Shown piece by piece: positions 137 to 19,539 of a stretch of 32,000 nucleotides of DNA. The translations under genes and the position numbers were made by a program. Below the pieces are notes generated by a model, which worked only from the letters and a program-made list of their open reading frames with translations, was not told where the DNA came from and searched no databases. The DNA is from Breznakia blatticola. GTDB lineage: Bacteria > Bacillota_I > Bacilli_A > Erysipelotrichales > Erysipelotrichaceae. The stretch is taken from assembly GCF_004365815.1 (NCBI RefSeq), contig NZ_SODD01000026.1:1-32000 (forward strand), in the 5' to 3' direction. Position 1 is the first letter of the stretch, and each line of letters starts with the position of its first letter.

Positions 137-667
137 ATGCAAGTTAATGCATTGTTTGGTATTTTATCAACATTTGATGAAAAAAGCTTAGTTGATAATG
201 CAACTATTGAAGTAAATTGGACAGTTTATACGTTAAAAGAAAAGGATGGAGAGTTTTTTGTAAAATCTCCTAACTATGCAGACAATGCATATGAGGAGTT
301 AACAGATGACTTAACATTAGCCTTATGGGTACATTTAGAACAATTTCATCTATTAAGAAAATTGAATATCGAAGGAGAAGCTATTAGATTTGATGATAAA
401 GTCATATATGCAGATGGAGCTTTCGATGCTAATAACGTCTATCTTCAAAGGATTGAGACATCAACGAAAGGGGATTCTGGATGGTTTATAGGCGTTAGGA
501 ATGGGGACAATTCAAAACTTAAAGCATGCTATGCATATCAGCTATTAAAATTGAATAAAGAATTTATACAATATTTGGTACTTCCAAAAAATTATTTAGT
601 AGTTTTAGAAAACAATGAAGTTAAAGCAATATTGAATGGAGACAATGAGAATATTACAAATAATTAA
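137..667 (+). CDS. Putative polymorphic-toxin immunity protein (Imm33/DUF2185-like C-terminal half)
   Basis: 176-aa ORF. The C-terminal 'TKGDSGWFIGV...LVLPKNY' resembles the DSGW signature I associate with Imm33/DUF2185. It heads a toxin/immunity array, so a cognate toxin would lie upstream of the window. Confidence 0.45.
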   Translation: MQVNALFGILSTFDEKSLVDNATIEVNWTVYTLKEKDGEFFVKSPNYADNAYEELTDDLTLALWVHLEQFHLLRKLNIEGEAIRFDDKVIYADGAFDANNVYLQRIETSTKGDSGWFIGVRNGDNSKLKACYAYQLLKLNKEFIQYLVLPKNYLVVLENNEVKAILNGDNENITNN

Positions 668-711
668 ATCAAAAGTAGCTTGTGTATTTTTCTTTCGGCT
701 ATTACTTACTA

Positions 712-778
712 CCCTTGGTGCGCCAACGGCAAGGGCCTGAGAAGTGCGTTTGGATGAGGATGTAATACCACCCTACGC
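712..778. repeat. GC-rich conserved intergenic element, copy A (partner at 8314..8388)
   Basis: ~58% GC by hand count in an AT-rich region. Shares the blocks GCGCCAACGGCAA and GAGGATGTAATACC(A/G)CCCT(A/G)CGC with copy B. Starts 45 nt after an immunity-gene stop codon. Confidence 0.8.
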
Positions 779-915
779 ATACATATTAAAATGAGGAAAG
801 CACAAATAAGTAGGAATAATATGTAAATACTTGTAGGTGAAATTTACATGCAAAGTAAATAAGAAACAAGAAATAAACACAAAGACCATTAACAGCAGGC
901 TGTCTATGTTGCGAT

Positions 916-2655
916 ATGGTCCTTTTGTTATGCAAACAAGATCCAAATACATATCAAGGATATACGACAAAAAAAGTAAGAAAAGTAGAAGTATCCTATG
1001 AAGACATTGTCAAAGGAAAAACAATTATCGACTTAGGTGATGACTTTAACAAATACATAAAGGGTATAAATGATGGTATAATAAAAGCAGATAAAATATC
1101 TGAAGATGAATACATGAATGCAGTACTAGGATCTAAGTTTGCACATGATATGGAAGCGGATGATTTTATATCTGGATTAAGCTTTGTCTTAGATTGTATA
1201 CCTGTCGTAGGTGGTATAAAAAATATTGCAGAAGCATGTTCTGGAACAACTATGACAGGAGAAAAACTATCTGATGATGAAAGAGTCATGTTGGGAGTTG
1301 GAGGACTGTTATCAATTGGAATTGATATAGCTACGTTTGGTTCACTAAGTGGAGCTACAACAGCAGCAAAAGTAGGAAGTTTCACAATCAAAGTAGGAAT
1401 AGAAACAGGACAAGCAATGGTGATAGGTCTAGGTAGTCAATACCTGATAGAAAATGGATGTAATCCACTATTGGCATTTGCTATTATGGCAGGAGCAACT
1501 GTAGCAGGTGGAGCAGCATTTAGTAAAGTAACCGCAAAACCATCTATCAAACTTGATTTAGACACTCTAGCAAGTAAAGGAATTAATAATGTAGATGAAC
1601 TAGCAAAACATGGAATCACAAGTATGGATGATCTTGCTAAGCTAGGTGTAAAGAATAGTGATGATCTAGCTAAACTAGGAATTAAAAATGCAGATGACTT
1701 GGCAAAATTTGGAGTAAATAGTTTAGAAGATTTAAAACATATTGGTTTAGGTGATTTAGCAACCTATAAAAGTATTGATGATATCTTTGATAGCAAGAAA
1801 AGCTTCATGGATATGATGGATGCAACAGAGGCAGCAAGATATGAAAAATATCTAAGTTCTAAATTAACAGATGGATTGCCACCAAATATGGATATGGATG
1901 ACTATTTGCGATATCAAAAAGCATTAAATAAACTAGATGAAATAAGTGCATACAACAAAGTAAATGGAAATGCGATTCTTGATATAAGAAGAGAAGCAGA
2001 TAACTTACTAAAATATGGAGTGAAAAATACAAGTGATTTAGGAAAGTTAGGAATCACAAGTATAGATGACTTAACAAAACTAGGAATCAAAAACACAGAT
2101 GATTTACTAAGTTTAGGAGTTAAGAATATCGATGACCTTAAGCAGGTAGGTATTAAAGGTTTAGATGAATTTAATTCGATAGATAAAATTTTTAAGGGCT
2201 TGGGGAATGAAGAGCGTCTAATTCCAGGTATGGATGGAGTTGTGACTGGTGGTAATTCTACAAAGCTTGGTAAGAATATGCTTGGGGATATGGGTGTTAA
2301 TGGTTCAAAATGGAGCGGTTATCAAGCACAGCATATTATTCCCGCTGAAGCCATGAATCACCCAGTAATTCAGAAAATAGGTATGGATTTTGATGATGCA
2401 TCAAATGGATTGTTCTTAAGAACTACCGATGATGGTATTAGTACAATGTCAAGACATAAAGGATATCATTCTACATACAATGATTTTGTACTTTCAGAAT
2501 TAGATAAAATAGATATAGCACAAAGTAGTGTCGCTATTCAAAAACAAGTTTTGGATTTGCAATCTAAATTAATCACATTACAAAAAAGCGGATTACCTCT
2601 TTATCCTAAGCAAGGTGCAAGTATTGATTTGTGGGAGAGATGGTTTTATAAATAA
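916..2655 (+). CDS. Orphan (N-terminally truncated) polymorphic toxin: PT-TG domain, Gly/Ala-rich segment, 11-aa repeats, C-terminal AHH-type HNH/EndoVII nuclease
   Basis: 579-aa ORF. 'LDCIPVVGGIKNIAEACSGTTMTGEKLSDDER' fits the pre-toxin TG pattern. The C-terminus 'YQAQHIIP...DDASNGLFL...SRHKGYHSTYN' fits the AHH nuclease pattern, with AQH instead of AHH. An in-frame stop at 889-891 leaves only ~85 aa before PT-TG, versus ~205 aa in the 6288..7805 toxin. Confidence 0.75.
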   Translation: MVLLLCKQDPNTYQGYTTKKVRKVEVSYEDIVKGKTIIDLGDDFNKYIKGINDGIIKADKISEDEYMNAVLGSKFAHDMEADDFISGLSFVLDCIPVVGGIKNIAEACSGTTMTGEKLSDDERVMLGVGGLLSIGIDIATFGSLSGATTAAKVGSFTIKVGIETGQAMVIGLGSQYLIENGCNPLLAFAIMAGATVAGGAAFSKVTAKPSIKLDLDTLASKGINNVDELAKHGITSMDDLAKLGVKNSDDLAKLGIKNADDLAKFGVNSLEDLKHIGLGDLATYKSIDDIFDSKKSFMDMMDATEAARYEKYLSSKLTDGLPPNMDMDDYLRYQKALNKLDEISAYNKVNGNAILDIRREADNLLKYGVKNTSDLGKLGITSIDDLTKLGIKNTDDLLSLGVKNIDDLKQVGIKGLDEFNSIDKIFKGLGNEERLIPGMDGVVTGGNSTKLGKNMLGDMGVNGSKWSGYQAQHIIPAEAMNHPVIQKIGMDFDDASNGLFLRTTDDGISTMSRHKGYHSTYNDFVLSELDKIDIAQSSVAIQKQVLDLQSKLITLQKSGLPLYPKQGASIDLWERWFYK

Positions 2656-2666
2656 AGGAGGATAAA

Positions 2667-3119
2667 ATGATTATGACAGAAGCTCAACAAAGAATTATAA
2701 ATCATTTATTATATGAAGCAAATGATGATAAAGTAATAAAGGCATTACATGGAATAAAAGATACCGATATTATATATATATATATGTTTAATTATAATTG
2801 GGATAATGGCTTTGATATACCTAATGAAATTATAAATCATCCTTACTGTGATTTAAGTACGGCACTCATGATGTTTTATCATGCTGATGGGGATGCCTTT
2901 TTAGAGGACAAAAGAGTTAATGAACAACTCAAGAAATGGTTTGATTTTATTAAATTACTATATTCGTTAATTTTAGGCTGTAAATATAAGAAGAGTGATA
3001 TAAAATTTAGCCCTCCACTTTCTAGGGTGCAAATATTTAAGTTAAAAAAAATATTATCTCCTAATGAGAATATATTTATTGAGGAATTCGGAAACAGAAA
3101 TTTAAATATTATCGTTTAG
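2667..3119 (+). CDS. Putative cognate immunity protein of the AHH-type toxin (family not recognised)
   Basis: 150-aa ORF starting 11 nt after the toxin stop, behind an AAAGGAGG RBS. The position is the canonical immunity slot. Confidence 0.55.
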   Translation: MIMTEAQQRIINHLLYEANDDKVIKALHGIKDTDIIYIYMFNYNWDNGFDIPNEIINHPYCDLSTALMMFYHADGDAFLEDKRVNEQLKKWFDFIKLLYSLILGCKYKKSDIKFSPPLSRVQIFKLKKILSPNENIFIEEFGNRNLNIIV

Positions 3120-3253
3120 TGGTTTAAAGTGATCTATCTTAATGTGTGGTTACATTGTAAAGAAAGAGAATTCGTACCAAATATGTTAGTTGGTGCCAAA
3201 AAGAATGGAGTCGTAGAAAAAGTAATATTCTAGTTAAATAACAACATCAAAAT

Positions 3254-3300
3254 AAAATGCATCTAGATAAGTGTAATCAAGACATCTACAGATGCATTTT
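3254..3300 (+). terminator. Hairpin with 11-bp perfect stem (AAAATGCATCT / AGATGCATTTT) ending in a T-run
   Basis: The inverted repeat was read directly. The 25-nt loop is large and has inner AGAT/ATCT pairing. It lies 135 nt after the 2667..3119 stop. Confidence 0.4.
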
Positions 3301-3330
3301 TATATAATGATGCAATTATTCAAGGTTATA

Positions 3331-3368
3331 AAGTGAACAAAGTATAATAAAGTGAACAAAGTATAATA
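3331..3368. repeat. Perfect 19-nt tandem duplication (AAGTGAACAAAGTATAATA x2)
   Basis: Read directly. Each unit contains TATAAT. Confidence 0.9.
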
Positions 3369-3778
3369 AGGAAATAACGGCATATAGTAAAATAAGTAAA
3401 TTTGCAATTCTTGACAAAAAATAGAAGCATAAAACTTACAAAATATGAAGTAAAAAAACTCAGGCATTTCAAGAGAACTAGAAATCAAAATTTTGATAGA
3501 GCAGCAACAGTTTTAGTAATGTTAAGGGCTATTGTCAATAAAACATGGATTCCTAAGGGAATTAATGAGCAGATAATGTCAAGTGGATACACATGGTATG
3601 AGTTGAATAATGCAGAGATTATGATATTTTTCAGTGTAAAAAAGACTTCGTAGGGATTTATGTCTCTCAGAAAATAAAAGACATTATTGAAGAGAATGAT
3701 TGAATCGGATTTGTATTATATAAGCAAGATATTATTAAAATTAAGTAAGTAAATTTTTTTTGCAATTGTCTAGAGAAA

Positions 3779-4223: not shown

Positions 4224-4252
4224 TTGAAGGCTAATGTATAAAGTGTTATAAT
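4224..4252 (+). promoter_or_regulatory. Sigma-70-like promoter TTGAAG-17 nt-TATAAT for the toxin operon
   Basis: Hexamers and 17-nt spacer read directly. It lies ~105 nt upstream of the 4357 start. Confidence 0.5.
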
Positions 4253-4356: not shown

Positions 4357-4728
4357 ATGGGATGGTTTAGTAAAACCTATGTGCAAGAAATGATTGATGA
4401 GTTTGAAGATTTAATTTGCGATATCAATAGCACAATTACAAAGATGGAAAGTAATTTAAGCACCTTGAAAACAGATGTAAAATCCATTCATAGTAAATTA
4501 GGTACATATACAGAAGCTAAAGGGTCTTACACAGATATTTATTACAAGAAAATAGGGGAAAGTAAAGAAGATTTCAATGTTGTGTATAATAAGTATCAAG
4601 ATGCTATAGATGCACTAAAGGTGAAAAAGAGAAGAGCAGAATACGTGTTAAGTCAATTCGAGGATTATCGTAGAAAAGAAGTAAATCAAGACATAGAATA
4701 TAGTGCAAATGAAGTTTACATTAACTAG
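4357..4728 (+). CDS. Small helical accessory protein (Lap/WXG100-like candidate)
   Basis: 123 aa with a coiled-coil-like composition and a GAGGGGGG RBS. It is the first gene of the operon, the position typical of small helical partners of Gram-positive secreted toxins. Confidence 0.45.
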   Translation: MGWFSKTYVQEMIDEFEDLICDINSTITKMESNLSTLKTDVKSIHSKLGTYTEAKGSYTDIYYKKIGESKEDFNVVYNKYQDAIDALKVKKRRAEYVLSQFEDYRRKEVNQDIEYSANEVYIN

Positions 4729-4740
4729 CGGAGGAGAATT

Positions 4741-5076
4741 ATGAGTGCAGATAAATACATTTTTGATCCTGCGGTAGTAACGAGGGTCATAAAAGAACAA
4801 AGACATGTTCGCAGTGAACTACAAGAGATTTATAAGAGTGCAATTGAACTAAGAAGTAAAATTGATAGTGGCATTAGTTGGAAGGGTAAACAAAAGGACG
4901 TTTTACTGAATATGTTAGATGCTGTGATTTTATATCATGGTGATGTAACTGGTGGAAAAGATGGAAAAAATAATAGTCCTTACGATGCATTAATTAGTGC
5001 ATTAACAAACTTAGAGAAAAGTTTGAATGTATCTGTTAATGATATTCCTGCTTATAAGGAGATTTCAAAAGTATGA
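4741..5076 (+). CDS. Small WXG-like accessory protein
   Basis: 111 aa with a central 'ISWKGKQK' W-x-G motif in a helix-turn-helix-sized protein. There is a 12-nt gap with a GGAGGAG RBS. Confidence 0.45.
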   Translation: MSADKYIFDPAVVTRVIKEQRHVRSELQEIYKSAIELRSKIDSGISWKGKQKDVLLNMLDAVILYHGDVTGGKDGKNNSPYDALISALTNLEKSLNVSVNDIPAYKEISKV

Positions 5077-5726
5077 TTGCATTAAATACAAATGAGATTC
5101 TTGCCTTAAACGGACTATTGGATAGTGAAGCGATCCATGGAATCAAACTTCCAACAGTACCACAAGAACAAGAAGAAGCAGTAACCAAAGAAGTAATCGA
5201 GTCACTCACGGAAAAAGAGTTTTTTATTGATGGGAAGATGAGTGATAAATTGTTTGCGATTACACAATTGTTAGAAGAATACAAAACGAGTGAACGATAT
5301 GTATTTATAAATCAAATGCGTATTGGATTAAAAGATGAAGATGAAGTTACTTTTTTAGAAATTAATGAAGATGAAACTATTTATCTAGGACGTATCCAAA
5401 GAGTAAATATAGTAAAACAAATTGTTGGCAATAGTGAGTTTTTGAAGAAGGAACAAAAAACACGTTACTTTGGAAATGAAGAAAAGGATTGTAGTTTTGA
5501 TGAATACACAGAGTATGTAAATAGTAAAAATGATGAATGGAAAGATATGATAGTTATCCAAGTTTATCAAGAAGAACAACTACAAAACTTTTATACATAT
5601 TATATGAGTGATAATGAGGGATATTGCTACAACCATTTACGTAAAACAAGTAAAGAAAAAGGGCCGAAAGATATACGACAAGACTTAATCGATATTCTTG
5701 AGGTAGTAGGTGATCGCAATGAGTGA
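5073..5726 (+). CDS. Acidic 217-aa accessory protein (candidate chaperone/adaptor; family not recognised)
   Basis: Its start overlaps the previous stop (ATGA). A degraded copy of its 3' end is present at ~9880..9950. Confidence 0.4.
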   Translation: MIALNTNEILALNGLLDSEAIHGIKLPTVPQEQEEAVTKEVIESLTEKEFFIDGKMSDKLFAITQLLEEYKTSERYVFINQMRIGLKDEDEVTFLEINEDETIYLGRIQRVNIVKQIVGNSEFLKKEQKTRYFGNEEKDCSFDEYTEYVNSKNDEWKDMIVIQVYQEEQLQNFYTYYMSDNEGYCYNHLRKTSKEKGPKDIRQDLIDILEVVGDRNE

Positions 5727-6291
5727 TGTTACAGGAGTTACAAGTACTCAAGGTGTTGAAGTTTCAATCGGCGAAGAGAGTTATGAAATTGCAATGGAGT
5801 TTAGTAATTTAGTTGCAAGACTTGCGAGTGCTCAAAATGATTTCAATAAAAGTGCAGCATTTATGAGTGCATCAGAAGGTAGTATTATTGGAAAACAACT
5901 TGCTGAATCAATAATGACAAAAATGTCTGGATTGTTTGGACCAAACAAACAAGCAATACCATCAAATAGTCCAATACGGCCTGTAGGTGATGGAGAAGTT
6001 ATGTATGAAGGTAAGGCAAGTGAAGAGATAGCGAATGCTACAGCAACACTGTCTACACATATTGATAACCTTATGAATTTTTACTCAATGTGCTCAGAAT
6101 ATATCAACCAAGCATGGGAAGCAATGGTTGAAAAAGATAAAGAGTTAGCGGATAAAATCTCTTTTAATTATATTGTTGAGCATAAGGAAGAGTATCGAAA
6201 GATACTTGAAGATGACTATGGTATCGATGCCGATGCATTACAAAAAGTTTCCCTTGAAAAAGATAGTAATCAAGGAGGCACAACAGCATGA
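5710..6291 (+). CDS. Helical accessory protein translationally coupled to the toxin (possible stand-alone LXG-like module)
   Basis: 193 aa (GTG at 5710, or ATG at 5719). Its stop overlaps the toxin start (ATGA) behind AAGGAGG. The last 90 codons are duplicated at 9952..10222. Confidence 0.4.
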   Translation: MIAMSDVTGVTSTQGVEVSIGEESYEIAMEFSNLVARLASAQNDFNKSAAFMSASEGSIIGKQLAESIMTKMSGLFGPNKQAIPSNSPIRPVGDGEVMYEGKASEEIANATATLSTHIDNLMNFYSMCSEYINQAWEAMVEKDKELADKISFNYIVEHKEEYRKILEDDYGIDADALQKVSLEKDSNQGGTTA

Positions 6292-7290
6292 CAAAAACCA
6301 AAATTGTATGTACAAGATGGGAAGACAATGAAGTAAAAAATAATGCGATGTTGTCAAATCTTATCAGTCTTGATTTAGATGGACCAGTAAATAGAATTAA
6401 TGCTGAGTTTGCAAGGTTACCACATATTGCGAAAATTAGTTATAGTAATTTAAATGAAAAAAAGAATACTGCTATGTATGGCTTATCAACTATATCTGGG
6501 TATGTTACAAAAATCATTGATTATATTGATGAGTACATCGATGATCCATTCTACAAAAAATTAAATGGACCAACAGGAGTTCTGGAACGTTTGGAAAAAA
6601 TCCGTTTGGATGACTCAAAATATCAAGTGAAAAACACAGCAGGTATTGAAACAGAAAAAACGGTTTATATTACAGATCCATATACACATCAAACAAAAGC
6701 TGAAGTAGTTAAGGAAGTAAAAAACAAAATCAGCATTGAAGATATGTTGAAGACTAGTGGGGTAAAAGGAAGTAGCAGTATTCCGACATTCAAAGATTTA
6801 TATAAGGAACAGTTTGACCAACAAAGTAAGGCGAATCCGGATTTGAAGTATAGTGAATATGTTGATCAACTTATTCATAGAGCAGACATTAGTCATAGTG
6901 TGGATGCAGGATGGCTAAATGTAGTAAGTGATGTACTAGATATAGTAGGTATTGTATCTATTGTTGGAATATTTACAGGTAAAGATTTTATTACTGGAGA
7001 AATCTATACGAAAGCGGAACGCGATGCAGCCTTAATTAATGGTATAATAAGTATAGGAAGTTTAGCTTTTGCTGGAGTTGGGCTCGTAGGAAGTGGACTA
7101 AAAGCAACGGCAGTTGGATTAGGAAAGGCAGTAGCATTGGATATGGCAGCTGGTGCAGCTGGTATGGGGGCAGGAGCAGTAGCTGGAGCACTAGGTGCAC
7201 CAGATGAACTTCGTGCCTTGATTACAATTGGAACAGCAATGGGTGCTGGGTATGGACTTGGAAAGATAACCAATAAAAATATAAATAAAG
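6021..7290 (+). repeat. 1,270-bp direct repeat, copy 1 (partner 9952..11221)
   Basis: Constant offset of 3,931 nt with no indels. By eye, 12 substitutions, all in 7010-7271. Confidence 0.95.
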
Positions 7291-7805
7291 CTAGTAAGGG
7301 TTCGGGTGCTAATTTAGATAATATTAATGGATTTGCTAAAGGAAATAAGAATTTCGATGATGTAGTAGATGATTATGCAAGGATTTACGCAGATAAAGTT
7401 AAAAGTAATAAGAGTTGGGAATGGATGGATATTGAAGGTGCTGAAAACCTTACGCCAAAACAAATGAAAGAAATTCGAGAATTAGCAAAAACTAATGGTT
7501 ATATACCAAATATTCAGTTGAAGCCAGGAACTAACTACCCTGATTTTGAAAGTTCTGATGTTATTTATAAAGTTAATGGAAATCCTGTTATAGAACAATT
7601 ACCAGAAGATTTATGGCTAAAAGGAGATAAAGCACAATTTGATTATCTAGACTCACAGTTGCCCGGTGGGGTTAGACCAAAAGGGTATACTTGGCACCAT
7701 AGCGAAATATCCGGCAGAATGGAGTTAGTTGAATATGGTATTCATAACTCTACATGGCATAAAGGCGGTAGAGCACCTGGCGGTTGGGCCGATGCAAAAA
7801 GATAG
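6288..7805 (+). CDS. Polymorphic toxin: unknown N-terminal domain, PT-TG, Gly/Ala zipper, C-terminal WHH-type HNH/EndoVII nuclease
   Basis: 505 aa. Contains 'FTGKDFITGEIYTKAER' (PT-TG), 'AAGAAGMGAGAVAGALGA', and the C-terminal 'PKGYTWHHSEISGRMELVEYGIHNSTWHKGG' (WHH at 7692-7700). Confidence 0.8.
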   Translation: MTKTKIVCTRWEDNEVKNNAMLSNLISLDLDGPVNRINAEFARLPHIAKISYSNLNEKKNTAMYGLSTISGYVTKIIDYIDEYIDDPFYKKLNGPTGVLERLEKIRLDDSKYQVKNTAGIETEKTVYITDPYTHQTKAEVVKEVKNKISIEDMLKTSGVKGSSSIPTFKDLYKEQFDQQSKANPDLKYSEYVDQLIHRADISHSVDAGWLNVVSDVLDIVGIVSIVGIFTGKDFITGEIYTKAERDAALINGIISIGSLAFAGVGLVGSGLKATAVGLGKAVALDMAAGAAGMGAGAVAGALGAPDELRALITIGTAMGAGYGLGKITNKNINKASKGSGANLDNINGFAKGNKNFDDVVDDYARIYADKVKSNKSWEWMDIEGAENLTPKQMKEIRELAKTNGYIPNIQLKPGTNYPDFESSDVIYKVNGNPVIEQLPEDLWLKGDKAQFDYLDSQLPGGVRPKGYTWHHSEISGRMELVEYGIHNSTWHKGGRAPGGWADAKR

Positions 7806-7817
7806 GAGGAATTATTA

Positions 7818-8291
7818 ATGTTTGAAAGAAGTGATATGAATGTGCTTCCTTCACCTTCGAAGGAGCAAATAATAAAAACTGAAAGATTTTACAGAATAAG
7901 TTTGCCAGAAGATTATGTAGAATTTATTAAAAATTATAATGGAGCAATACCTAAGAAAAATGCATTTACAATTGATGGAAGGGAGTATTTAGTAGAAAGA
8001 TTTCTTTGTATATTAGGAAACTTGAAAAATGATTATGAAGAAGGTTGGGCTGACATAGGTGTTATTATAACCCAAATATTTGATAGACTTACTGATAGTC
8101 CGGATGAGCTGGGAATGAAAATAATACCAATTGCAGCATTGTTTGCAGGAGATTTTGTTTGCTTAGATTTTAGGGTAAATAAAAAAGATCCAAACGTTTG
8201 TATTTGGTATCACGAGACATCGGATGAGTTTAAGCCAGACACTAAAAAAGTTGCTAGAAATTTCACAGATTTTTTAGAAATGCTTAAATAA
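7818..8291 (+). CDS. SMI1/KNR4 (SUKH-1) family immunity protein
   Basis: 157 aa with the 'SLPEDYVEFIKNYNGA' hallmark. Starts 12 nt after the toxin stop behind a GGAGGA RBS. Confidence 0.8.
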   Translation: MFERSDMNVLPSPSKEQIIKTERFYRISLPEDYVEFIKNYNGAIPKKNAFTIDGREYLVERFLCILGNLKNDYEEGWADIGVIITQIFDRLTDSPDELGMKIIPIAALFAGDFVCLDFRVNKKDPNVCIWYHETSDEFKPDTKKVARNFTDFLEMLK

Positions 8292-8313
8292 TGAAAGTGC
8301 AGTGAATGATTTT

Positions 8314-8388
8314 CCTTGCCCCCAGGCGCGCCAACGGCAAAGTGCCAAAGGAGTGGTGCTGGGCGAGGATGTAATACCGCCCTGCGCT
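8314..8388. repeat. GC-rich conserved intergenic element, copy B
   Basis: Aligns with 712..778. Starts 23 nt after the SUKH gene stop and lies upstream of the terminators at 8476..8550. Confidence 0.8.
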
Positions 8389-8475
8389 AACGTCAACAAA
8401 CAATAAAATACTGGATAAACATGGGACAATAAGCGAAAAAGGGCTTACCCCATAATATTTGAAAATGATAGAAAT

Positions 8476-8550
8476 AACGCCTCATTTTGAACTCTGCGTA
8501 TACATCAAAATGAGACGTTTTTTATTACCGAGGGGCTTCGCCCCTTTTTT
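8476..8550 (+). terminator. Two tandem rho-independent terminator hairpins
   Basis: First: CTCATTTTGA/TCAAAATGAG stem (8481-8490 / 8505-8514) plus a T-run. Second: AGGGGC-TTC-GCCCCT (8531-8545) plus a T-run. Confidence 0.65.
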
Positions 8551-8706
8551 GGTACATCGCAGAAACTTGGGGTGAGCAGAAAAAACACAAGTAAATAAGT
8601 TGGGGTGAAAAGTACCCCAAACTTCTTAAGAGACGGTGTAAAAATTTTTGTGCAAAGTATCCTCCCTTGGTAGAATGAAAATAACTACCAAAGGAGGATT
8701 TTTAAT

Positions 8707-9272
8707 ATGAGTAAGAAAGATATCATTAAAATGATAAGAGAAGAATATGGTGTAACGAATGCTTTAAAAGATCTAATAGGTGATACTCTCCAAGATATGC
8801 TTAATTCAGAATTTGATGAGCACATGGGATATGAGAAACACGACCAGTCTGAACTCAAAGACAATTATCGTAATGGTAGTTCTAAGAAAAATGTAAAAAC
8901 TACACAAGGTGAAATAGAACTAAATATACCAAGAGACAGAAATGCAACTTTTGATCCAATGGTTATAGAAAAGCATAATCGAGATATATCTGACATTGAT
9001 CATAAAATCATAAATTTATATGCTAGAGGTATGTCAACACGTGATATTAGCGATTCTATAAAAGACATCTATGGAGTTGATGTTAGTGCTACTATGATTA
9101 GTAAAATTACGGATAAGATTATGCCGAAAGCTTTAGAATGGCAAAATAGAGCGTGTACACGGTTTATCCAATCGTATTTATTGATTGCGTACATTTTAAT
9201 GTGAAGAATGAAAATATGGTAAGCAAGAAGGCTGCTTATGTAGTTTTAGGCGTTACAGAAACTAGATTATGA
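8707..9272 (+). mobile_element. IS256-family transposase remnant (frameshifted, 3'-truncated)
   Basis: '...MGYEKHD...RNGSSKKNVKT..GEIELNIPRDRNATFDP..I.KH.RDIS..D.KII.LYARGMSTRDI...I...YG...SATMIS.ITDK..P...EWQNR' is IS256/mutator-like. After ~9150 the frame shifts ('VYPIVFIDCVHFNVKNENMVSKKAAYVVLG'). The reading frame ends at 9272, with roughly half a transposase missing. Confidence 0.75.
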
Positions 9273-9507
9273 GGTGGTTGGGTCATGAATGCAGATGATA
9301 TTAACGGTTTAACCCCTACTCAAATTTAGATGAAATATGCATTAACATATGAGCCTATATTGGAGAAAAGCTATATTACTGGCAGGCATAAAAATCAATA
9401 TGGGTGAAGCAAATAGTCTTTTTGGTTATCTTGGTGGAGCTATTCAAATTGATTTTATTAGTTGGAGAATTTAAAGAAATCGGAAAAAATACAAATTGGA
9501 GTGATAA
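9273..9507 (+). pseudogene. Decayed 3' remnant of a TNT-like toxin domain
   Basis: Nucleotide similarity to 11470..11712 (for example 9333-9356 vs 11530-11553, 23/24 identical). Its translation 'GGWVMNADDINGLTPTQI*MKYALTYEP...' contains several stops. Confidence 0.75.
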
Positions 9508-9510
9508 ATA

Positions 9511-9867
9511 ATGATAAAAGTAAATAAAAATGTAATAGAAGTAAACAAAAAGAAAAAAGAATTTGAATATAATATTAGAAAATATATACAGCGAAATGAT
9601 AAAATTTTTATATTACTAGAGATACCTATGGGAATAAATCTAACAAGAAAAGAAATTGACAATATTATTTGTGTTAATTTGGATTTAGATATTATATGGA
9701 TAGTGAAAAATATACCATTAAAACAGTTTCCTAATATGGATAATCTTCCTTTTGAAGCAATAAGAATAACTGAAAATAATGAACTAAGGGGAGTAGACTT
9801 CTATGGTAGAAATTATTGTATTAATCAAAATAGCGGAGAATTAATAAGTTTTAAAGTTGTTAAATAG
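9511..9867 (+). CDS. Orphan immunity protein, paralog of 11716..12078
   Basis: 118 aa. Shares 'DKIFILL(E/D)IP.GI.LT.KE' and 'G.DF.GR' with the 120-aa protein that follows the intact TNT-like toxin. Confidence 0.6.
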   Translation: MIKVNKNVIEVNKKKKEFEYNIRKYIQRNDKIFILLEIPMGINLTRKEIDNIICVNLDLDIIWIVKNIPLKQFPNMDNLPFEAIRITENNELRGVDFYGRNYCINQNSGELISFKVVK

Positions 9868-10222
9868 TACATTTAATATTGATAGTAATAACAAAAGATT
9901 TATAGTGCATAATAAAGAAGAATATTGCTGCAACCAGTTACATAAAATAAATGAAGAGATAGCGAATGCTACAGCAACACTGTCTACACATATTGATAAC
10001 CTTATGAATTTTTACTCAATGTGCTCAGAATATATCAACCAAGCATGGGAAGCAATGGTTGAAAAAGATAAAGAGTTAGCGGATAAAATCTCTTTTAATT
10101 ATATTGTTGAGCATAAGGAAGAGTATCGAAAGATACTTGAAGATGACTATGGTATCGATGCCGATGCATTACAAAAAGTTTCCCTTGAAAAAGATAGTAA
10201 TCAAGGAGGCACAACAGCATGA
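9857..10222 (+). CDS. Chimeric ORF: degraded 3' end of the 5073-type gene fused in frame to the last 90 codons of the 5710-type gene
   Basis: 'FIVHNKEEYCCNQLHKINEE' resembles 'YTYYMSDNEGYCYNHLRKTSKE' of 5073..5726, followed by identity to 6021..6291. TTG start; expression is uncertain. Confidence 0.4.
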   Translation: MLNSTFNIDSNNKRFIVHNKEEYCCNQLHKINEEIANATATLSTHIDNLMNFYSMCSEYINQAWEAMVEKDKELADKISFNYIVEHKEEYRKILEDDYGIDADALQKVSLEKDSNQGGTTA

Positions 10223-11221
10223 CAAAAACCAAAATTGTATGTACAAGATGGGAAGACAATGAAGTAAAAAATAATGCGATGTTGTCAAATCTTATCAGTC
10301 TTGATTTAGATGGACCAGTAAATAGAATTAATGCTGAGTTTGCAAGGTTACCACATATTGCGAAAATTAGTTATAGTAATTTAAATGAAAAAAAGAATAC
10401 TGCTATGTATGGCTTATCAACTATATCTGGGTATGTTACAAAAATCATTGATTATATTGATGAGTACATCGATGATCCATTCTACAAAAAATTAAATGGA
10501 CCAACAGGAGTTCTGGAACGTTTGGAAAAAATCCGTTTGGATGACTCAAAATATCAAGTGAAAAACACAGCAGGTATTGAAACAGAAAAAACGGTTTATA
10601 TTACAGATCCATATACACATCAAACAAAAGCTGAAGTAGTTAAGGAAGTAAAAAACAAAATCAGCATTGAAGATATGTTGAAGACTAGTGGGGTAAAAGG
10701 AAGTAGCAGTATTCCGACATTCAAAGATTTATATAAGGAACAGTTTGACCAACAAAGTAAGGCGAATCCGGATTTGAAGTATAGTGAATATGTTGATCAA
10801 CTTATTCATAGAGCAGACATTAGTCATAGTGTGGATGCAGGATGGCTAAATGTAGTAAGTGATGTACTAGATATAGTAGGTATTGTATCTATTGTTGGAA
10901 TATTTACAGGTAAAGATTTTATTACTGGAGAAATCTATACAAAAGCAGAACGCGATGCAGCCTTAATTAATGGTATAATAAGTATAGGAAGTTTAGCTTT
11001 TGCTGGAGTTGGGCTTGTAGGAAGTGGACTAAAAGCAACGGCAGTTGGATTAGGAAAGGCAGTAGCATTAGATATGGCAGCTGGTGCAGCCGGTATGGGA
11101 GCAGGAGCAGTAGCCGGAGCATTAGGTGCACCGGATGAACTTCGAGCCCTGATTACAATTGGAACAGCAATGGGTGCTGGGTATGGACTTGGAAAGATAA
11201 CTAATAAAAATATAAATAAGG
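9952..11221 (+). repeat. 1,270-bp direct repeat, copy 2
   Basis: See 6021..7290. Confidence 0.95.
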
Positions 11222-11712
11222 TAGTTAAGGACTCGGGTACAGTCGGTTCGGGTAGTGTTTATGATGATTTAGATGAGATGTTAACAGGATCACTTGATGG
11301 TAAAGTTAAGTACAATAAAATAGAATTATCTGATAATGTAAATGATTTCTGGAAAAACAAGGGATACAGTGAGCCACCATATAATGCTGGTGATGTTGTA
11401 ATTGATGGTACCCTTACCAAAGATGGAACATTTGTTCGTGTTTATGATGGTGTAAACACAAAATTGGAAGGTGGATTTGTAATGAAGGCAGAAGATATAA
11501 AAAATCTTACTCCTGCTGAAATCCAAGCAAAATATGCATTACCATATGAGCCTGTTTATGTTGCAGAGGTGAAATTAGATGCAGGAACCAATATTCATAT
11601 AGGTGAGGTAGCACCTAATTTTGGATACTCCGGTGGTGGTATTCAAATTGATATGAAAGGTGCATGGGTAGGTGAATTTAAAGAACTCGGAAAAATAATA
11701 GATTGGAGATAA
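10219..11712 (+). CDS. Polymorphic toxin with the same N-terminal/PT-TG region as 6288..7805 but a TNT/DUF4237-like (putative NAD+ glycohydrolase) C-terminus
   Basis: 497 aa, identical to the first toxin through '...KITNKNINK'. The C-terminus 'FVRVYDG...KYALPYEPVYVAEV...GEVAPNFGYSGGGIQ' (11602-11646) matches the TNT-family 'G.iAP.FGqpGGG.Q' signature as I recall it. Confidence 0.65.
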   Translation: MTKTKIVCTRWEDNEVKNNAMLSNLISLDLDGPVNRINAEFARLPHIAKISYSNLNEKKNTAMYGLSTISGYVTKIIDYIDEYIDDPFYKKLNGPTGVLERLEKIRLDDSKYQVKNTAGIETEKTVYITDPYTHQTKAEVVKEVKNKISIEDMLKTSGVKGSSSIPTFKDLYKEQFDQQSKANPDLKYSEYVDQLIHRADISHSVDAGWLNVVSDVLDIVGIVSIVGIFTGKDFITGEIYTKAERDAALINGIISIGSLAFAGVGLVGSGLKATAVGLGKAVALDMAAGAAGMGAGAVAGALGAPDELRALITIGTAMGAGYGLGKITNKNINKVVKDSGTVGSGSVYDDLDEMLTGSLDGKVKYNKIELSDNVNDFWKNKGYSEPPYNAGDVVIDGTLTKDGTFVRVYDGVNTKLEGGFVMKAEDIKNLTPAEIQAKYALPYEPVYVAEVKLDAGTNIHIGEVAPNFGYSGGGIQIDMKGAWVGEFKELGKIIDWR

Positions 11713-11715
11713 TAA

Positions 11716-12078
11716 ATGAATTCAAAATATAATGTTGAAGAAAATAAAATCATTATAAATAACATTGAAATTTATATGGACTATCCAATTAAGGATATTA
11801 AAGAATTAAGAGATAAAATATTTATTTTATTAGATATCCCTAGAGGGATTAAACTTACAGAAAAAGAAGATTGTAATATCCTTTGTTATAATTCCTCAGG
11901 TATATTTCAATGGCGTATAAGTTCTTCTTTACCCAAAGGCATTGAGAGCAAAGAATTAATACCCTATATTTCTATAGATATACAAGAAGGAAACTTATAT
12001 GGTTTTGATTTCTGGGGGCGCAAATTCCATATAGATACTTTTAATGGAAATTTACTTGACTTTAAAACTTTCAAATAG
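11716..12078 (+). CDS. Putative immunity protein for the TNT-like toxin (family not recognised)
   Basis: 120-aa ORF starting 3 nt after the toxin stop behind a GGAGA RBS. A paralog sits at 9511..9867. Confidence 0.6.
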   Translation: MNSKYNVEENKIIINNIEIYMDYPIKDIKELRDKIFILLDIPRGIKLTEKEDCNILCYNSSGIFQWRISSSLPKGIESKELIPYISIDIQEGNLYGFDFWGRKFHIDTFNGNLLDFKTFK

Positions 12079-12337: not shown

Positions 12338-13150
12338 CTATTTTTTCGTTCCTTTCTTTTTCTTATTTGTCCTGTATTCACTTAAGGAATAGCACTCATA
12401 CTTATTTTGCGAGTACATGATTTTATTGCGAGCTCTCTCAAAGTTTCTAAAACCATTTGCATTATTCAAAATTTTCTTAATATAATTATTTAACCTTCAA
12501 TTACACCGTTCGAGAACCGTCGTCCATCAAACCATACAAATGAGTTTAGTATTTCTTCTTTCCATTTTTCCAGAGTATTTGCACATCTATTAAATTCATT
12601 TATCTGAGAGTTCCGCATTGCTTCAACTATGTCATCAAGTCTTTCATTATGAAGTTCCGCTTTTGTGAACTTGGTTTCTTGAAAAAGTAGTCGTACAGGA
12701 TTACGTATCTTCTAGATTTTACGATATCAAGAATCAGTTTCTTATCGAAATCCATAATCATAAATGCATATTTATATTTCGAATGTCGATTGAAATAAAA
12801 CTCATTGATACAGATGTGTTGTGTGAGTGCTTTTGGTTGTACTTGCACATGAATATCAAACAACTCCACTACTTTAGTAACAGATAGGTTGTATCTTCTT
12901 GCCACTGAGGAAAAAGTTTCGTTATATGGTTTTAAATCATCTAAAATGTTTATAATGGACTTAGAAGATACTTTAGTGCGTCTATTCGATGTAAACGGAT
13001 TGTTTTCAACGAATGAAATCTGGCAGGATTTACACAAGTATCTTTTACATTTGTAGAATAGGAAAGTGTCACGGTTGATAAGACTATTATGTGATACTTT
13101 TCTTATTAGCGAAGCTAGAATACCACTTACTATGCGAGTGGTAATAGGCT
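12338..13150 (-). mobile_element. ISL3-family transposase pseudogene (frameshifts, internal deletion)
   Basis: Minus-strand translation gives 'FYKCKRYLCKSCQ', 'ICINEF', 'SNGVIEG(fs)NNYIKKILNNANGFRNFERARNKIMY'. At least two frame breaks are present, and the total coding length is far below a full ISL3 transposase. Confidence 0.65.
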
Positions 13151-13247
13151 TCTAGTTGTAAACACGCACCAAAAAAGCACCAAATTTCGATATACTATAG
13201 ATGGCCTGGCAGCTAACTATAAATAAAGAAAGAAGGTGCATTGTCTA

Positions 13248-13409
13248 ATGAAAGACACAAACAATTTATCACACACAAGTTACAGATGCAAATATCACAT
13301 TATAATAATACCAAAGTATAGAAGAATGGTAATTTATAATAAGTTAAGGAGAGATGTCGGACAAATATTGAGAAGACTAATAGAAAGAAAATCTATATAT
13401 TTTATATAG
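13248..13409 (+). pseudogene. IS200/IS605-family TnpA N-terminal fragment
   Basis: 53-codon ORF 'MKDTNNLSHTSYRCKYHIIIIPKYRRMVIYNKLRRDVGQILRRL...' matches the TnpA N-terminus. It stops before the HUH region. Confidence 0.7.
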
Positions 13410-14024: not shown

Positions 14025-14148
14025 TTAAATAGGGTTTTATGTATGTCGTTGCGCGTAAGGAAGGGACAAGGCAATAAAATGTAAGTTATAGTAGTAGTGT
14101 GTGTAGAGTTATTTGATAGTGGTTTATAAAAATTAGTAAGAGGGGAAA

Positions 14149-15321
14149 ATGAAAAATATAGGAGAAGTATTGTTTAGACATGTTACTGCAACGTGTGTAA
14201 CATTTATTATTGCATATGTATTTACTACATATTATGAGAATAATATAGGTGTAAGTAAGTTTGAATGGTTTGGTTATTTAGCCCTTTTTAGTGGTATCAT
14301 TGCAACTGCAACTTACATAGGTCAATACATTGATAAAGCTAAAGGAAAAGCGTTAGTACTATTTATAGTAGGATGTATTATATTGGTGAAATTTGGTGTC
14401 TTTTTTGTATTAGTACCAATGTTACTTATTGAAAGTATAGTATTTATTTATTCGATTTTTAAATTGAATATGAATACTGTTTTGAATAGTGATGAACAAA
14501 GGCAAATTGAACAAGGCAAAATTGATAAAATGAAGATTGTAATACTTCAGAATAGAAGATTATGTGCATACAAAATTTTGATTGCGTTGATTGATACAGG
14601 AATTATATTTAGTCTTTCAAGAATTTTTAATAGTGTTGCTATAGTTGCCTTAGTCTTATTGTTTTTGTCTTATTATTTGTATATAGGTAAGATTCAAGGC
14701 AAAAACATTCAAAAAACTGCTAAGTTATTAGATGATGTTTTGACAGTAGAATGCGACGCGAAATTATATTGTGTTATGTATCGTGCGATAGAAAGAAATT
14801 GTAGTTCGATTGCTATCATGTATAACTATATGTGTGGACTTCAATGGGGTGGGTATGTAATAGAACTTGATAGAATGTTAAAAGCGTACCGAACATACAG
14901 CAAAACGTTTCAATATAAAACCATGTTTTATTCAAGAAAGGCGTTTGATAATAAAGTAAGTGAAAGTTTGTACACAGAGTTAATTGCACTTTATGATCGC
15001 GTTATTAAGCGTAGTAAAAATGATAAAATGTGGATATATGGTAGAAAAATACTGGTGATACAACGAAAAATCATTAAGCAAAGTTATAGAGAAGCACTAG
15101 AGAACATTCATGAATTATATGAATATGAAGAGATTTTACCAAAGATTTCATTAATTAATCAGAGAAGTTTGGAAAGTGAGTGTTTATATCATTTAGGTAA
15201 ATATGAGGAATGCACGAACTTACTTGAATGGATTATTGAACATGGTAATACATTGGTGGTGGTACGTAATGCGCAAGATCGTAAACAAAGGATTCATGAA
15301 AACCTAGCTATTGAAGTATAA
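14149..15321 (+). CDS. Polytopic membrane protein with Cys-rich/TPR-like helical C-terminal domain (unknown family)
   Basis: 390 aa. Several hydrophobic segments in the first ~190 aa. GAGGGG RBS. A paralog sits at 16428..17630. Confidence 0.7.
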   Translation: MKNIGEVLFRHVTATCVTFIIAYVFTTYYENNIGVSKFEWFGYLALFSGIIATATYIGQYIDKAKGKALVLFIVGCIILVKFGVFFVLVPMLLIESIVFIYSIFKLNMNTVLNSDEQRQIEQGKIDKMKIVILQNRRLCAYKILIALIDTGIIFSLSRIFNSVAIVALVLLFLSYYLYIGKIQGKNIQKTAKLLDDVLTVECDAKLYCVMYRAIERNCSSIAIMYNYMCGLQWGGYVIELDRMLKAYRTYSKTFQYKTMFYSRKAFDNKVSESLYTELIALYDRVIKRSKNDKMWIYGRKILVIQRKIIKQSYREALENIHELYEYEEILPKISLINQRSLESECLYHLGKYEECTNLLEWIIEHGNTLVVVRNAQDRKQRIHENLAIEV

Positions 15322-15697
15322 AATAGCTAGATAAAGTGATGTTTACAACATCCTGGTTACATCAATTGACATAATGTCTATCCAATACGAAGTTCACAGC
15401 AACTAAAGCAGTAATATTTATAAAATTACAGTTAAAGAAGAACGTTTATGAAAGTACTGGTGATTATGTATGTTTATAGAAAAGGAAAATAGTATTGTTA
15501 TTAAAATACTCTGATTAAAAATAGATAAACAATTACCTAGACAAATGTAAAAGATTCTTATAAAAATGTATGGTATGATTATTTCGTTGGAATTGCGTTT
15601 TAAATAGTGAGTAAACAGAGAATGTTAAGAAAATCTTATGTTCGGTATTACTTGCTATAACTTAATTAAAAGTGTTGTGATTAGATAAGGAGATTTT

Positions 15698-16258: not shown

Positions 16259-16427
16259 TAAGGTAACAGAGATGTAGTAGTTTAAAAACTATGTCTTTTG
16301 TATATTAGATTTGTTAGCGAGTGACATTGTGCGTAAATAAAAGACAAAGCAATAACAATGTAAGTTCTAGTAGTAGTGTGTGTAGAGTTTTTAGATAGTG
16401 GTTTATAGAAATTAGTAAGAGGGGAAA

Positions 16428-17630: not shown

Positions 17631-17772
17631 AATGGATAGATAAAGTGATATTTACAACATCCTGGTTACATCAATTGACATAATGTCTATCCAATACTAA
17701 GATAACACCAACCAAAGCGGTAAAAGTTATAAACAAAGAGTTTATAGGTTTATAAATTTATAGCTAAAGGAG

Positions 17773-17793
17773 GGCGTTTATGAAAGTAACTAT
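17773..17793 (+). repeat. Right copy of exact 21-bp direct repeat
   Basis: Identical to 3779..3799. Overlaps the ATG and first codons of the dsbA-like gene. Confidence 0.9.
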
Positions 17794-18484
17794 TGATATG
17801 TACAGTGACTATGCATGTCCATTTTGTTATCTGGGAAAAGAGAATTTAAAAGCAGCAATTAAAACGTTACATCTACAAGATGATGTTGATATTCGTTACC
17901 ATAGTTTTCAGTTAGATCCAAATATTGATCAATCACACCCAATTGATTTAGAACACTTTGCGAAGATGAAAGGAATTTCATTGCAGCAATTACTTGAATC
18001 ACAAAAAGAATTAGGTGAAAGACTACAAGAAAAAGGATTGACGATGCATTATGACAAATTGATTGTCGCAAACAGTTTTGATGCACATCGTTTAGTAAAG
18101 TATGCAACAACACAAAACAAGGCTACAGAGTTACAAGATCGTTTATTAAAAGCAAGTCTTGAACAAGGATTAGATATTGCAGATTATAATGTGTTAACTA
18201 CACTAGCTGTAGAAGTAGGTTTGGATAAAGATGCAGTAAAAGCTGTACTAAATTCTGGTGATTATGCATATTCAGTCATTCAAGATTTGGATAGTGCACG
18301 TGAACAAAATATATCGGGTGTTCCATTTTTTGTGATCAACAATCGTTATCCAATTTATGGTGCACAACCAGAATATCGTTTTGAAGATACACTACGTCGT
18401 GCATTACTTGAAATGGATGATGCACCAATAAAAAAAGAAAAGAAACCAGAAGTCTGTGAAGGCGATTGTTGTTTGTTTGAATAG
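17780..18484 (+). CDS. DsbA family (FrnE-like) thiol:disulfide oxidoreductase
   Basis: 234 aa with an N-terminal 'YSDYACPFCYLGK' CxxC motif and thioredoxin-fold layout. Confidence 0.8.
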   Translation: MKVTIDMYSDYACPFCYLGKENLKAAIKTLHLQDDVDIRYHSFQLDPNIDQSHPIDLEHFAKMKGISLQQLLESQKELGERLQEKGLTMHYDKLIVANSFDAHRLVKYATTQNKATELQDRLLKASLEQGLDIADYNVLTTLAVEVGLDKDAVKAVLNSGDYAYSVIQDLDSAREQNISGVPFFVINNRYPIYGAQPEYRFEDTLRRALLEMDDAPIKKEKKPEVCEGDCCLFE

Positions 18485-19535: not shown

Positions 19536-19539
19536 GTTG

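Follow-up and report, generated by a model that had tools for sequence, protein, structure and literature searches.

In a window of 32,000 nucleotides (nt) from Breznakia blatticola (contig NZ_SODD01000026.1, positions 1 to 32,000), two toxin genes, tox1 and tox2, begin within the two copies of a long direct repeat. On balance, though with considerable reservation, we favour the reading that tox1 and tox2 are two full-length tandem type VIIb secretion system (T7SSb) effectors, similar to EsaD and YeeF. The second would be the relic of a module that has lost its partner genes, its N-terminus kept identical to that of tox1 by gene conversion and its partners plausibly supplied in trans. An earlier note on the same DNA had seen in the repeat a toxin switch that works by deletion. 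Taken together, the locus is an ordinary polymorphic-toxin locus shaped by recombination, and nothing in it shows a dedicated toxin switch.

Geometry and mismatch pattern of the repeat

6021-7290, forward strand: repeat copy 1, 1,270 nt, from self-comparison of the window
9952-11221, forward strand: repeat copy 2, 1,270 nt, from self-comparison of the window
5710-6291, forward strand: the 5710 gene, a WXG100-like partner in the EsxD position, 193 amino acids (aa), from homology to same-position genes
6288-7805, forward strand: tox1, 505 aa, a constant N-terminal region (residues 1-334) followed by a WHH/HNH nuclease C-terminus
10219-11712, forward strand: tox2, 497 aa, with 334 N-terminal residues as in tox1 and a C-terminus of 163 aa that is probably a divergent TNT/Tne2-type NAD+ glycohydrolase (NADase)

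The two copies, both on the forward strand, align at a constant offset of 3,931 nt with no insertions or deletions, as the earlier note had described, and are identical at 1,257 of 1,270 positions; the 13 mismatches had gone unmentioned. The alignment also bears out the span given for the repeat, which begins inside codon 104 of the 5710 gene and covers approximately the last 90 codons of this gene and codons 1-334 of the toxin. On the right, the repeat ends at ...NKNINK. While the boundary and the differing C-termini beyond it were found as claimed, the two sequences are not wholly unrelated from there on, as approximately 17 nt of residual similarity remain from a semi-conserved linker, K-x-x-K-x-SG. 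The copies are separated by a unique segment of 2,661 nt.

The mismatches are strongly clustered. Identity is perfect across 6021-7009 (989 nt), a tract that runs from the left junction of copy 2 to toxin codon 240, and all 13 mismatches fall within 7010-7290 (P ~3e-9 if they were evenly spread). These last 281 nt are 95.4% identical, the 4.6% divergence being confined to silent sites. Considering that 26% of random changes in this segment are synonymous, a set of 13 synonymous mismatches out of 13 has a probability of ~3e-8 under neutrality. As all of them are synonymous, the tox1 and tox2 proteins are identical over residues 1-334, and the second copy keeps the whole N-terminal region, just as the earlier note had stated. 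Judged from these nucleotide changes, the purely synonymous divergence shows both versions to have been under purifying selection while apart. The 989-nt identity points to a gene-conversion tract as its best explanation. The left limit of the tract would be set by a deletion junction, where homology ends, and its right limit at 7009/7010 by chance. The same mismatch pattern would also result if the arrangement were of recombinant origin, with the crossover at 7009/7010.

Several other origins of the repeat were considered and rejected. The overall layout is A-B-A′-C rather than the A-B-A-B of a simple tandem duplication; the self-comparison of the window showed neither a recombinase gene nor inverted repeats of the kind expected for a site-specific shufflon; and a chance repeat was dismissed as well.

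The tox1 module

4357-4728, forward strand: export partner at the EsxC position, small and helical, 123 aa, with a weak YwqH-like Pfam match
4741-5076, forward strand: export partner at the EsxB position, small and helical, 111 aa, from homology to same-position genes
5073-5726, forward strand: DUF5081 protein, an EsaE-type chaperone, 217 aa, Pfam DUF5081 2.3e-8, above the cut-off
7818-8291, forward strand: SUKH-family immunity gene for tox1, 157 aa, Pfam SUKH_6 7.8e-24 and SMI1_KNR4 2e-19

Directly 5′ of tox1, four genes follow the order esxC-esxB-esaE(DUF5081)-esxD, as established by in-order pairwise homology to the clusters of three related loci, L003 (the T7SSb locus of Listeria welshimeri), L004 and L009. 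The protein encoded at 4357 is homologous to the same-position gene of L003 (E 6.5e-15) and L004 (3.5e-19), and that encoded at 4741 to those of L003 (5.3e-15), L004 (1e-9) and L009 (2e-12), while the DUF5081 protein is 39% identical to its L003 homologue (E 3.6e-48). The 5710 protein matches the same-position genes of L003 (3.9e-17), L004 (3.2e-16) and L009 (1e-8) and, weakly, the WXG100 protein of L003 (1e-3). Because the arrangement corresponds to esxC-esxB-esaE-esxD-esaD, the 5710 gene was assigned the EsxD position. Its product carries a Y-E-G-K-A turn motif at residues 98-102, which reads Y-(E/D)-G-(K/R)-A in relatives. Since the repeat starts just past this motif, the truncated second copy of the gene keeps only the second helix and the tail. 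The stop codon of the 5710 gene overlaps the start of the toxin gene (ATGA).

The constant region of tox1 consists of a probably helical part, a candidate PT-TG domain and a glycine-rich hydrophobic stretch. Pfam assigned WHH (1.6e-14), Colicin-DNase (4.9e-8) and PT-TG (0.004) to tox1, the PT-TG match in both toxins reaching 17.5 bits, under the 23.5-bit cut-off. In the annotation by NCBI, tox1 is a Breznakia blatticola HNH/ENDO VII superfamily nuclease and the other toxin is EDD63_12613. The tox1 C-terminus together with the SUKH gene is 75% identical at the nucleotide level to a pair in a metagenome locus, L001, where it stands on a different N-terminus; WHH/SUKH is therefore a mobile pair. 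None of the NCBIfam models matched any module protein, and Rfam gave no match in the toxin region.

Family membership and related loci

An exhaustive profile search with the 334-residue N-terminus (E<=1e-3) yielded 155 representative proteins of 430-700 aa that share the ~330-aa N-terminus and are collinear from their own N-termini. When 85 of these were scanned against Pfam, PT-TG was present in 61, and the C-termini included GH-E, Endonuclease_NS_2, TNT, EndoU, AHH, WHH, CdiA_C, RES, deaminase and Ntox28. A shared N-terminus with such a catalogue of unrelated C-terminal toxin domains defines a polymorphic toxin family. Homology among its members ends at the NKNINK column, which is a family-wide boundary between constant and variable parts; one member, P0003, carries a third C-terminus at the same N-terminus and NKNINK junction.

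The closest relatives of the N-terminus are L. welshimeri proteins with about 35-40% identity. In L. welshimeri the toxin gene lies 3′ of YukC, EssC and a WXG100 gene and is preceded by four genes, whose products have 124, 106, 209 (DUF5081) and 152 aa, and a metagenome contig shows the same module order after EssC. All five module genes have ordered homologues in both places, beside YukC/EssC/WXG100 in the former and beside EssC in the latter. In L009, homologues of the module genes stand in order with the same pair of C-terminus and immunity gene as tox2. There is no internal toxin repeat in L003 and L004, so the tandem arrangement is not a general feature of the family in the few loci seen.

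A metagenome orphan, L005 (423-1316), matches toxin residues ~186-334 at 96% nucleotide identity with two internal deletions and carries a third C-terminus, of WHH type, joined at the same NKNINK junction. At the 11 of 13 variable sites that it covers, L005 has copy-2 bases at five and copy-1 bases at six. As this allele is a mosaic of copy-1-like and copy-2-like states, recombination in this segment occurs in nature.

Further searches aimed at the locus itself returned little. No record in public assemblies matched tox1, tox2 or the flanking Ldh by exact sequence, and a word-indexed protein search with the toxin N-terminus gave only the two window proteins and one metagenome fragment. Scans of genome contigs (with the toxin N-terminus and with a DUF5081 alignment) and of metagenome contigs (with the toxin N-terminus) returned no relatives of the locus. 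In the collections searched, we found no second genome of the species and no metagenome copy of the locus, and neither arrangement of it was seen elsewhere.

tox2, its C-terminus and its immunity gene

11716-12078, forward strand: imm2, putative tox2 immunity gene, 120 aa, a DUF7957-type homologue, from homology to genes after the same C-terminus elsewhere

The open reading frames of tox2 (497 codons) and imm2 (120 codons) are both intact. Behind the same C-terminus, L006 (1.5e-28) and L009 (1e-14), and also L008 and L001, have DUF7957 genes homologous to imm2; in the window and in L001, L006, L008 and L009, a tox2-type C-terminus is always followed by a DUF7957-type gene. The earlier note had placed an immunity gene of its own behind each toxin, and this was confirmed, with SUKH (7.8e-24) after tox1 and the DUF7957-type imm2 after tox2. 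In both pairs, WHH/SUKH and tox2-type/DUF7957, the immunity gene lies directly 3′ of the toxin C-terminus and travels with it, its neutralising role being putative. The tox2 C-terminus is rare, as only three short metagenome homologues were found among 5.8 billion clusters in the word-indexed protein search. It is also present on diverged full-length family members (P0028, P0044 and P0106), one of which is within a canonical five-gene module (L009).

The tox2 C-terminus is quite likely a TNT-like NADase, as judged from sequence motifs and a predicted fold. Against Pfam TNT it scored 14-16 bits, short of the 27-bit cut-off, so that the profile threshold was not reached. TNT was nevertheless the best Pfam family in four of four homologues of this C-terminus, all of them sub-threshold (best 7.3e-4). 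The AlphaFold2 model of the C-terminus has a predicted local distance difference test score (pLDDT) of 70.5, and its top Foldseek matches were the NADases Tne2 (6b12, probability 0.99, E 0.054), Tse6 (4zv0) and AfNADase (6ygf). These matches had E of 0.05-0.3 and TM-scores of 0.45-0.59, and none had E<=1e-3. In a profile search with the C-terminus, the next-best matches were family members with bona fide TNT domains. The hhalign comparison gave 88.6% probability over only 31 columns, in the GGGxQ segment, and R73, G138, Q142 and D144 are invariant. A profile search of the Protein Data Bank with the C-terminus gave no match, and tblastn against plasmids gave a single distant Agathobacter toxin labelled 'TNT-related'. 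As such, the TNT-like assignment made in the earlier note is only probable, with profile scores below the cut-off and NADases as the top structure matches at weak E.

The segment between the copies

8600-9260, forward strand: remnant of an insertion sequence (IS) of the IS256/Mutator family, Pfam Transposase_mut 2.8e-40, profile positions 15-159 of 379
9261-9507, forward strand: decayed remains of an orphan, namely the final ~85 codons of a TNT-like C-terminus that is related to the tox2 C-terminus, from tblastn in three frames
9511-9867, forward strand: imm′, the immunity gene belonging to the orphan cassette, intact, 118 aa, of DUF7957 type, from homology
9868-9951, forward strand: 3′-end remnant of a second, diverged DUF5081 gene, fused in frame to codon 104 of the 5710-type gene
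9952-10222, forward strand: truncated copy of the 5710-type gene with the second helix and C-terminal tail, lacking helix 1 and the YEG turn, from tblastn

The features named in the earlier note for this region, namely the WHH C-terminus (1.6e-14), the SUKH gene (7.8e-24) and the IS256 remnant (2.8e-40), were all recovered with Pfam. Three-frame translation of the IS256 remnant revealed the N-terminal ~185 codons of the transposase, frameshifted and with the 3′ half deleted, joined directly to the orphan C-terminus. The orphan cassette, also named there, is present at 9261-9867. While its immunity gene is intact, the toxin part at 9261-9507, with 72% nucleotide identity to 11458-11553, contains at least one stop codon and two frameshifts. 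The imm′ and imm2 products share 38-40% amino-acid identity, and imm′ has homologues (5.7e-24 to 1e-10) in the DUF7957 genes located behind this C-terminus family in L009, L008, L006 and L001.

A DUF5081 remnant lies directly left of copy 2. In the self-search of the window, 9912-9957 matched 5611-5656, the 3′ end of the DUF5081 gene, with 80% identity (E 1.4e-4). The remnant encodes EEYCCNQLHKI, aligned to EGYCYNHLRKT, and the Y-C-Y-N motif is conserved across the family. It is joined to the 5710-type gene at a microhomology of 9 nt, as copy 1 reads AAGTRAAGA at both 5648 and 6018, and a further junction joins the remnant to imm′. To the right of the junction, residues 102-193 of the 5710 protein are 97.8% identical to the 9952-10222 copy (tblastn). 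The position of the remnant and of the microhomology junction directly left of copy 2 argues that tox2 is the relic of a second complete module rather than a purpose-built store.

Expression signals

4224-4252, forward strand: candidate promoter of the operon, TTGAAG and TATAAT separated by 17 nt, with an extended -10 TG, from a consensus scan
8530-8546, forward strand: intrinsic-terminator-like GC-rich hairpin with a T-run, 3′ of the SUKH gene, -14.4 kcal/mol, z-score -1.6

The candidate promoter lies approximately 105 nt 5′ of the first partner gene. The DNA is AT-rich, and the region holds 52 promoter-like sites against 54 expected from shuffles. In both tox1 and tox2, AAGGAGG stands ten bases 5′ of the start codon ATG, within the 3′ part of the EsxD-like gene.

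Proposed history of the locus and competing explanations

In the order of events that we infer, module 2 would once have been complete, with DUF5081 and EsxD-like genes beside tox2. Removal of approximately 370 nt between short direct repeats would then have fused the DUF5081 remnant to codon 104 of the EsxD-like gene at the microhomology. After this deletion, gene conversion from one copy to the other may have homogenised the 989 nt from the junction to toxin codon 240, a stretch that, by analogy with residues 1-220 of EsaD, may be the partner-binding part, and the last 281 nt would retain the older divergence. Synthesis of tox2 would start at its own ATG, with its own Shine-Dalgarno sequence, and export would use the partners encoded 5′ of tox1. 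As the tox2 N-terminus is protein-identical to that of tox1, those partners could serve tox2 in trans, so that two effectors may be usable by the cell with a single partner set. The repeats would be substrates for RecA-type deletion, duplication and conversion, giving standing variation in the toxin repertoire rather than a dedicated switch. A bolder form of this history, which we regard as doubtful, is concerted evolution as an export strategy: conversion would keep the tox2 N-terminus like that of tox1 base for base, one partner set would load two toxins, and subpopulations would drop or amplify one of them. To our knowledge, a two-effector, one-adaptor arrangement with built-in repertoire variation is undescribed for EsaD-type modules.

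Several observations weigh against the relic-module history and the shared use of partners. The DUF5081 remnant is short (46 nt, E 1.4e-4), and gene conversion is not formally separable from a recent partial duplication with a recombinant 3′ end. The terminator-like hairpin at 8530-8546 stands between tox2 and the candidate operon promoter, and the only promoter-like site near tox2 (9879-9906, 5′ of the truncated gene) is no better than chance, so that tox2 could be silent. No T7SSb core gene (EssC, EssB/YukC or EsxA) lies within the window, and the Pfam scan did not detect LXG in the toxins. The AlphaFold2 model of full-length tox2 was too poor, N-terminus included, to compare with an LXG-like fold (pLDDT 39.7).

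The silence of tox2 is the starting point of the switch that the earlier note had proposed, in which RecA-mediated recombination between the copies would delete 3,931 nt, place tox2 and imm2 behind the partner genes and promoter, and exchange a nuclease for an NADase. The arithmetic of that proposal is right, as the deletion would remove exactly 3,931 nt, after which the accessory genes would be followed by an intact 5710 gene, tox2 and imm2. The copies are long, near-perfect and in register with a 989-nt exact stretch; every crossover would leave an intact EsxD-like gene and tox2, with the same proteins wherever it fell because the N-termini are identical; and the hairpin after the SUKH gene and the lack of a convincing promoter before tox2 fit silence. 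There is also precedent, since an orphan Rhs toxin was activated by recombination over 522 bp at 95% identity (PMC3967940), and orphan modules with part of the same N-terminus exist in relatives (L005). We nonetheless consider a switch unlikely. What survives of it is a constant region with exchangeable cassettes of C-terminus and immunity gene, and a deletion that is mechanically possible. The comparison with an Rhs-, CDI- or Maf-like orphan awaiting activation does not hold, as tox2 is not a stored C-terminus devoid of start codon and export region but a full 497-codon gene with all 334 N-terminal residues, its own ATG and AAGGAGG, and being complete it needs no fusion for expression; the fragment at 9261-9507 does fit that description of an orphan toxin, but it is decayed. 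Moreover, the deletion would drop the SUKH gene and expose the recombinant to the WHH toxin of its siblings (a logic raised in PMC3967940), while siblings that express imm2 would be immune to the new toxin of the recombinant. As imm2 is also present in the parent, its expression there would leave the new toxin without any advantage over kin. On its left, copy 2 begins at a decay junction amid module debris and not at a designed cassette boundary, and the databases searched, in which no second copy of the locus was found, contained no deletion variant or alternative arrangement.

Erosion of the second module could also have gone further than we propose, with tox2 a non-functional relic in decay and the repeat a recent segmental duplication or conversion of no present function. 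The partner genes of tox2 are gone, the adjoining orphan C-terminus has already been broken by stop codons, the area is flanked by IS remnants, and there is no promoter evidence for tox2. However, both the 497-codon tox2 frame and the 120-codon imm2 frame are open, none of the 13 differences from tox1 changes an amino acid, and the same pair of C-terminus and immunity gene is kept in canonical full modules elsewhere, which makes a functionless tox2 distinctly improbable. An assembly artefact, in which the toxins are alleles or distant loci threaded through a collapsed repeat, has very little to recommend it beyond the fact that a 989-nt exact repeat exceeds short-read inserts and that the locus comes from a draft genome, on a contig of 33 kb. 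Between the copies there are 13 phased differences, copy 2 is flanked on the left by distinct sequence of its own, and the unique 2,661-nt segment has the repeat on both sides, so that the tandem order is the only linear path that uses every segment once.

Comparison with known systems

The closest counterparts are EsaD/EsaG of Staphylococcus aureus and the EsaD-like toxins of Listeria and Bacillus, which likewise have two helical partners, DUF5081, a WXG100-like partner, the toxin and an immunity gene. Like the family described here, EsaD-type toxins have a variable C-terminus, with alternative domains that include NADase, and a helical N-terminus and PT-TG, both of which are probable in tox1 and tox2; relatives of the window genes adjoin essC. 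EsaD-like toxins with alternative toxin domains, including NAD+ glycohydrolase, have been described 3′ of an esxC-esxB-esaE-esxD cluster (Yang et al. 2023, PMC10653861). In S. aureus, EsxB, EsxC and EsxD bind EsaD residues 1-220 and EsaE is the targeting chaperone, and the EsaD N-terminal fold was likewise not modelled without its partners (PMC10653861). The window differs in its Erysipelotrichia host, in an N-terminus only about 35-40% identical to the Listeria proteins, in an EsxD-position protein of 193 aa compared with 104 aa for EsxD, and in two full-length toxins after one partner set; its link to a T7SS would hold by analogy.

Orphan toxins of the Rhs and CDI type share with the window constant-region direct repeats 5′ of alternative cassettes of C-terminus and immunity gene, where recombination would swap the C-terminus (PMC3967940). 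An Rhs orphan, having neither start codon nor export region, depends on fusion, whereas tox2 is complete, and the homology in the window extends over 1,270 nt and includes part of the upstream gene, unlike in Rhs (PMC3967940). Recombination was shown experimentally for Rhs (PMC3967940) and is hypothetical in the window. Koskiniemi et al. 2014 (PMC3967940) pointed out that deletion would sensitise recombinants to their siblings and proposed a duplication before recombination, by which the main immunity gene would be kept.

In Enterococcus faecalis OG1RF, T7SSb orphans are cassettes of C-terminus and immunity gene 3′ of a full-length toxin with shared 5′ homology (Chatterjee et al. 2021, PMC7790226), and the 9261-9867 cassette and the metagenome orphan L005 are of the same type. 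The OG1RF toxins are canonical LXG proteins with Lap-type partners (PMC7790226), whereas the second toxin of the window is not truncated. Recombination between conserved blocks of the tandem T7SS immunity paralogues esaG and tipC causes gain, loss and mosaicism (Garrett et al. 2022, PMC9484751). The conversion tract and the mosaic allele L005 give a signal of this kind too, although that study concerns immunity genes and the recombining block here is the toxin N-terminal region with the 3′ end of a partner gene.

Compared with TNT, Tne2 and Tse6 (PF14021; 6b12, 4zv0), the tox2 C-terminus appears to share G-x-x-a-P-x-F-G-x-x-GGG-x-Q and an invariant Arg in an F-V-R-V-Y strand. It differs in falling below the Pfam cut-off with 31 aligned profile columns, in its DUF7957-type immunity and in that its enzyme activity is predicted.

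Surroundings of the toxin island

916-2655, forward strand: N-terminally truncated toxin of the same family, PT-TG and AHH nuclease, 579 aa, Pfam AHH 5.2e-20 and PT-TG 1.2e-7
2667-3119: DUF4274 gene after the AHH toxin, Pfam 2.8e-17
12627-13037, reverse strand: remnant of an ISL3-family transposase, located where the toxin island ends on the right, with weak Pfam HTH_Tnp_ISL3 and DDE_Tnp_ISL3 matches

To the left of the tox1 module, an older toxin array occupies 137-3653 of the window and comprises an Imm33-like gene (137-667), the AHH toxin, the DUF4274 gene and a remnant at 3371-3457 that is 76% identical to 1939-2027. Residues 5-278 of the AHH toxin align with residues 95-380 of the L003 toxin (3e-21). 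By its sequence and position, the AHH toxin with the DUF4274 gene is an older orphan module 5′ of the tox1 module, and beyond the left end of the window there may be another full module. Together with the decayed orphan C-terminus and the other remnants, the truncated AHH toxin shows the locus, as read from its genes, to be a stack of modules in various states of erosion.

A GC-rich element of ~60 nt, beginning GGYGCGCCAACGGCAA, occurs at 717-778 and 8325-8387 with 78% identity, in each case 35-50 nt 3′ of an immunity gene, the two genes (Imm33-like and SUKH) being unrelated. It had no Rfam match and its fold was no more stable than that of shuffled sequence; it may be a cassette boundary or the end of a mobile element. 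On the right, ISL3 and IS110 genes likewise lie 3′ of the toxin module in L004. A short open reading frame at 13236-13409 (MHCLMKDTNNLSHTSYRCKYHIIIIPKYRR...) resembles the N-terminus of IS200/IS605 TnpA, and we take it to be a possible mobile-element fragment at the island edge. In L001, direct repeats of 300 nt with 83% identity (1182-1481 and 5337-5636) stand one immediately behind the SUKH gene and the other immediately behind the orphan cassette, bracketing a resolvase gene, an IS110 transposase and an intact orphan cassette of TNT-like C-terminus and DUF7957 gene. This layout suggests that the cassette may have been inserted or duplicated together with mobile elements.

Beyond the island, 14078-15456 and 16357-17788 form a ~2.3-kb tandem duplication (72-90% identity) that contains a pair of paralogous genes (390 and 400 aa) without a Pfam family, and the start of a DsbA-like gene (17780-18484) is echoed at 15417-15456. 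Three tandem DUF975 membrane-protein paralogues lie at 19459-21840, the first two in 820-nt repeat units (75-91% identity) that include the upstream regions. A skipping-rope RNA (Rfam RF02924, 69.6 bits, well over the gathering score) lies at 28514-28594, 5′ of a gene at 28746.

Implications

As a toxin switch, the locus would add little beyond the known Rhs, CDI, Maf and LXG orphans, and each of its elements has precedent (PMC10653861, PMC7790226, PMC3967940, PMC9484751). Particular to it are the host lineage, the unusually long EsxD-position protein and a complete second toxin whose partner genes are reduced to remnants. The EsaD-type T7SSb module, with three helical partners and a DUF5081 chaperone, is hereby extended to an insect-gut bacterium of the Erysipelotrichia. 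The locus also provides a natural example of how such loci evolve, by stacking of modules, loss of partner genes at microhomology, truncation of cassettes by IS elements and conversion of the export domain under selection at the protein level. If both toxins are exported on one partner set, the partners would recognise only the constant N-terminus and be indifferent to the cargo, and such indifference would be useful for understanding and engineering the targeting of T7SSb substrates.

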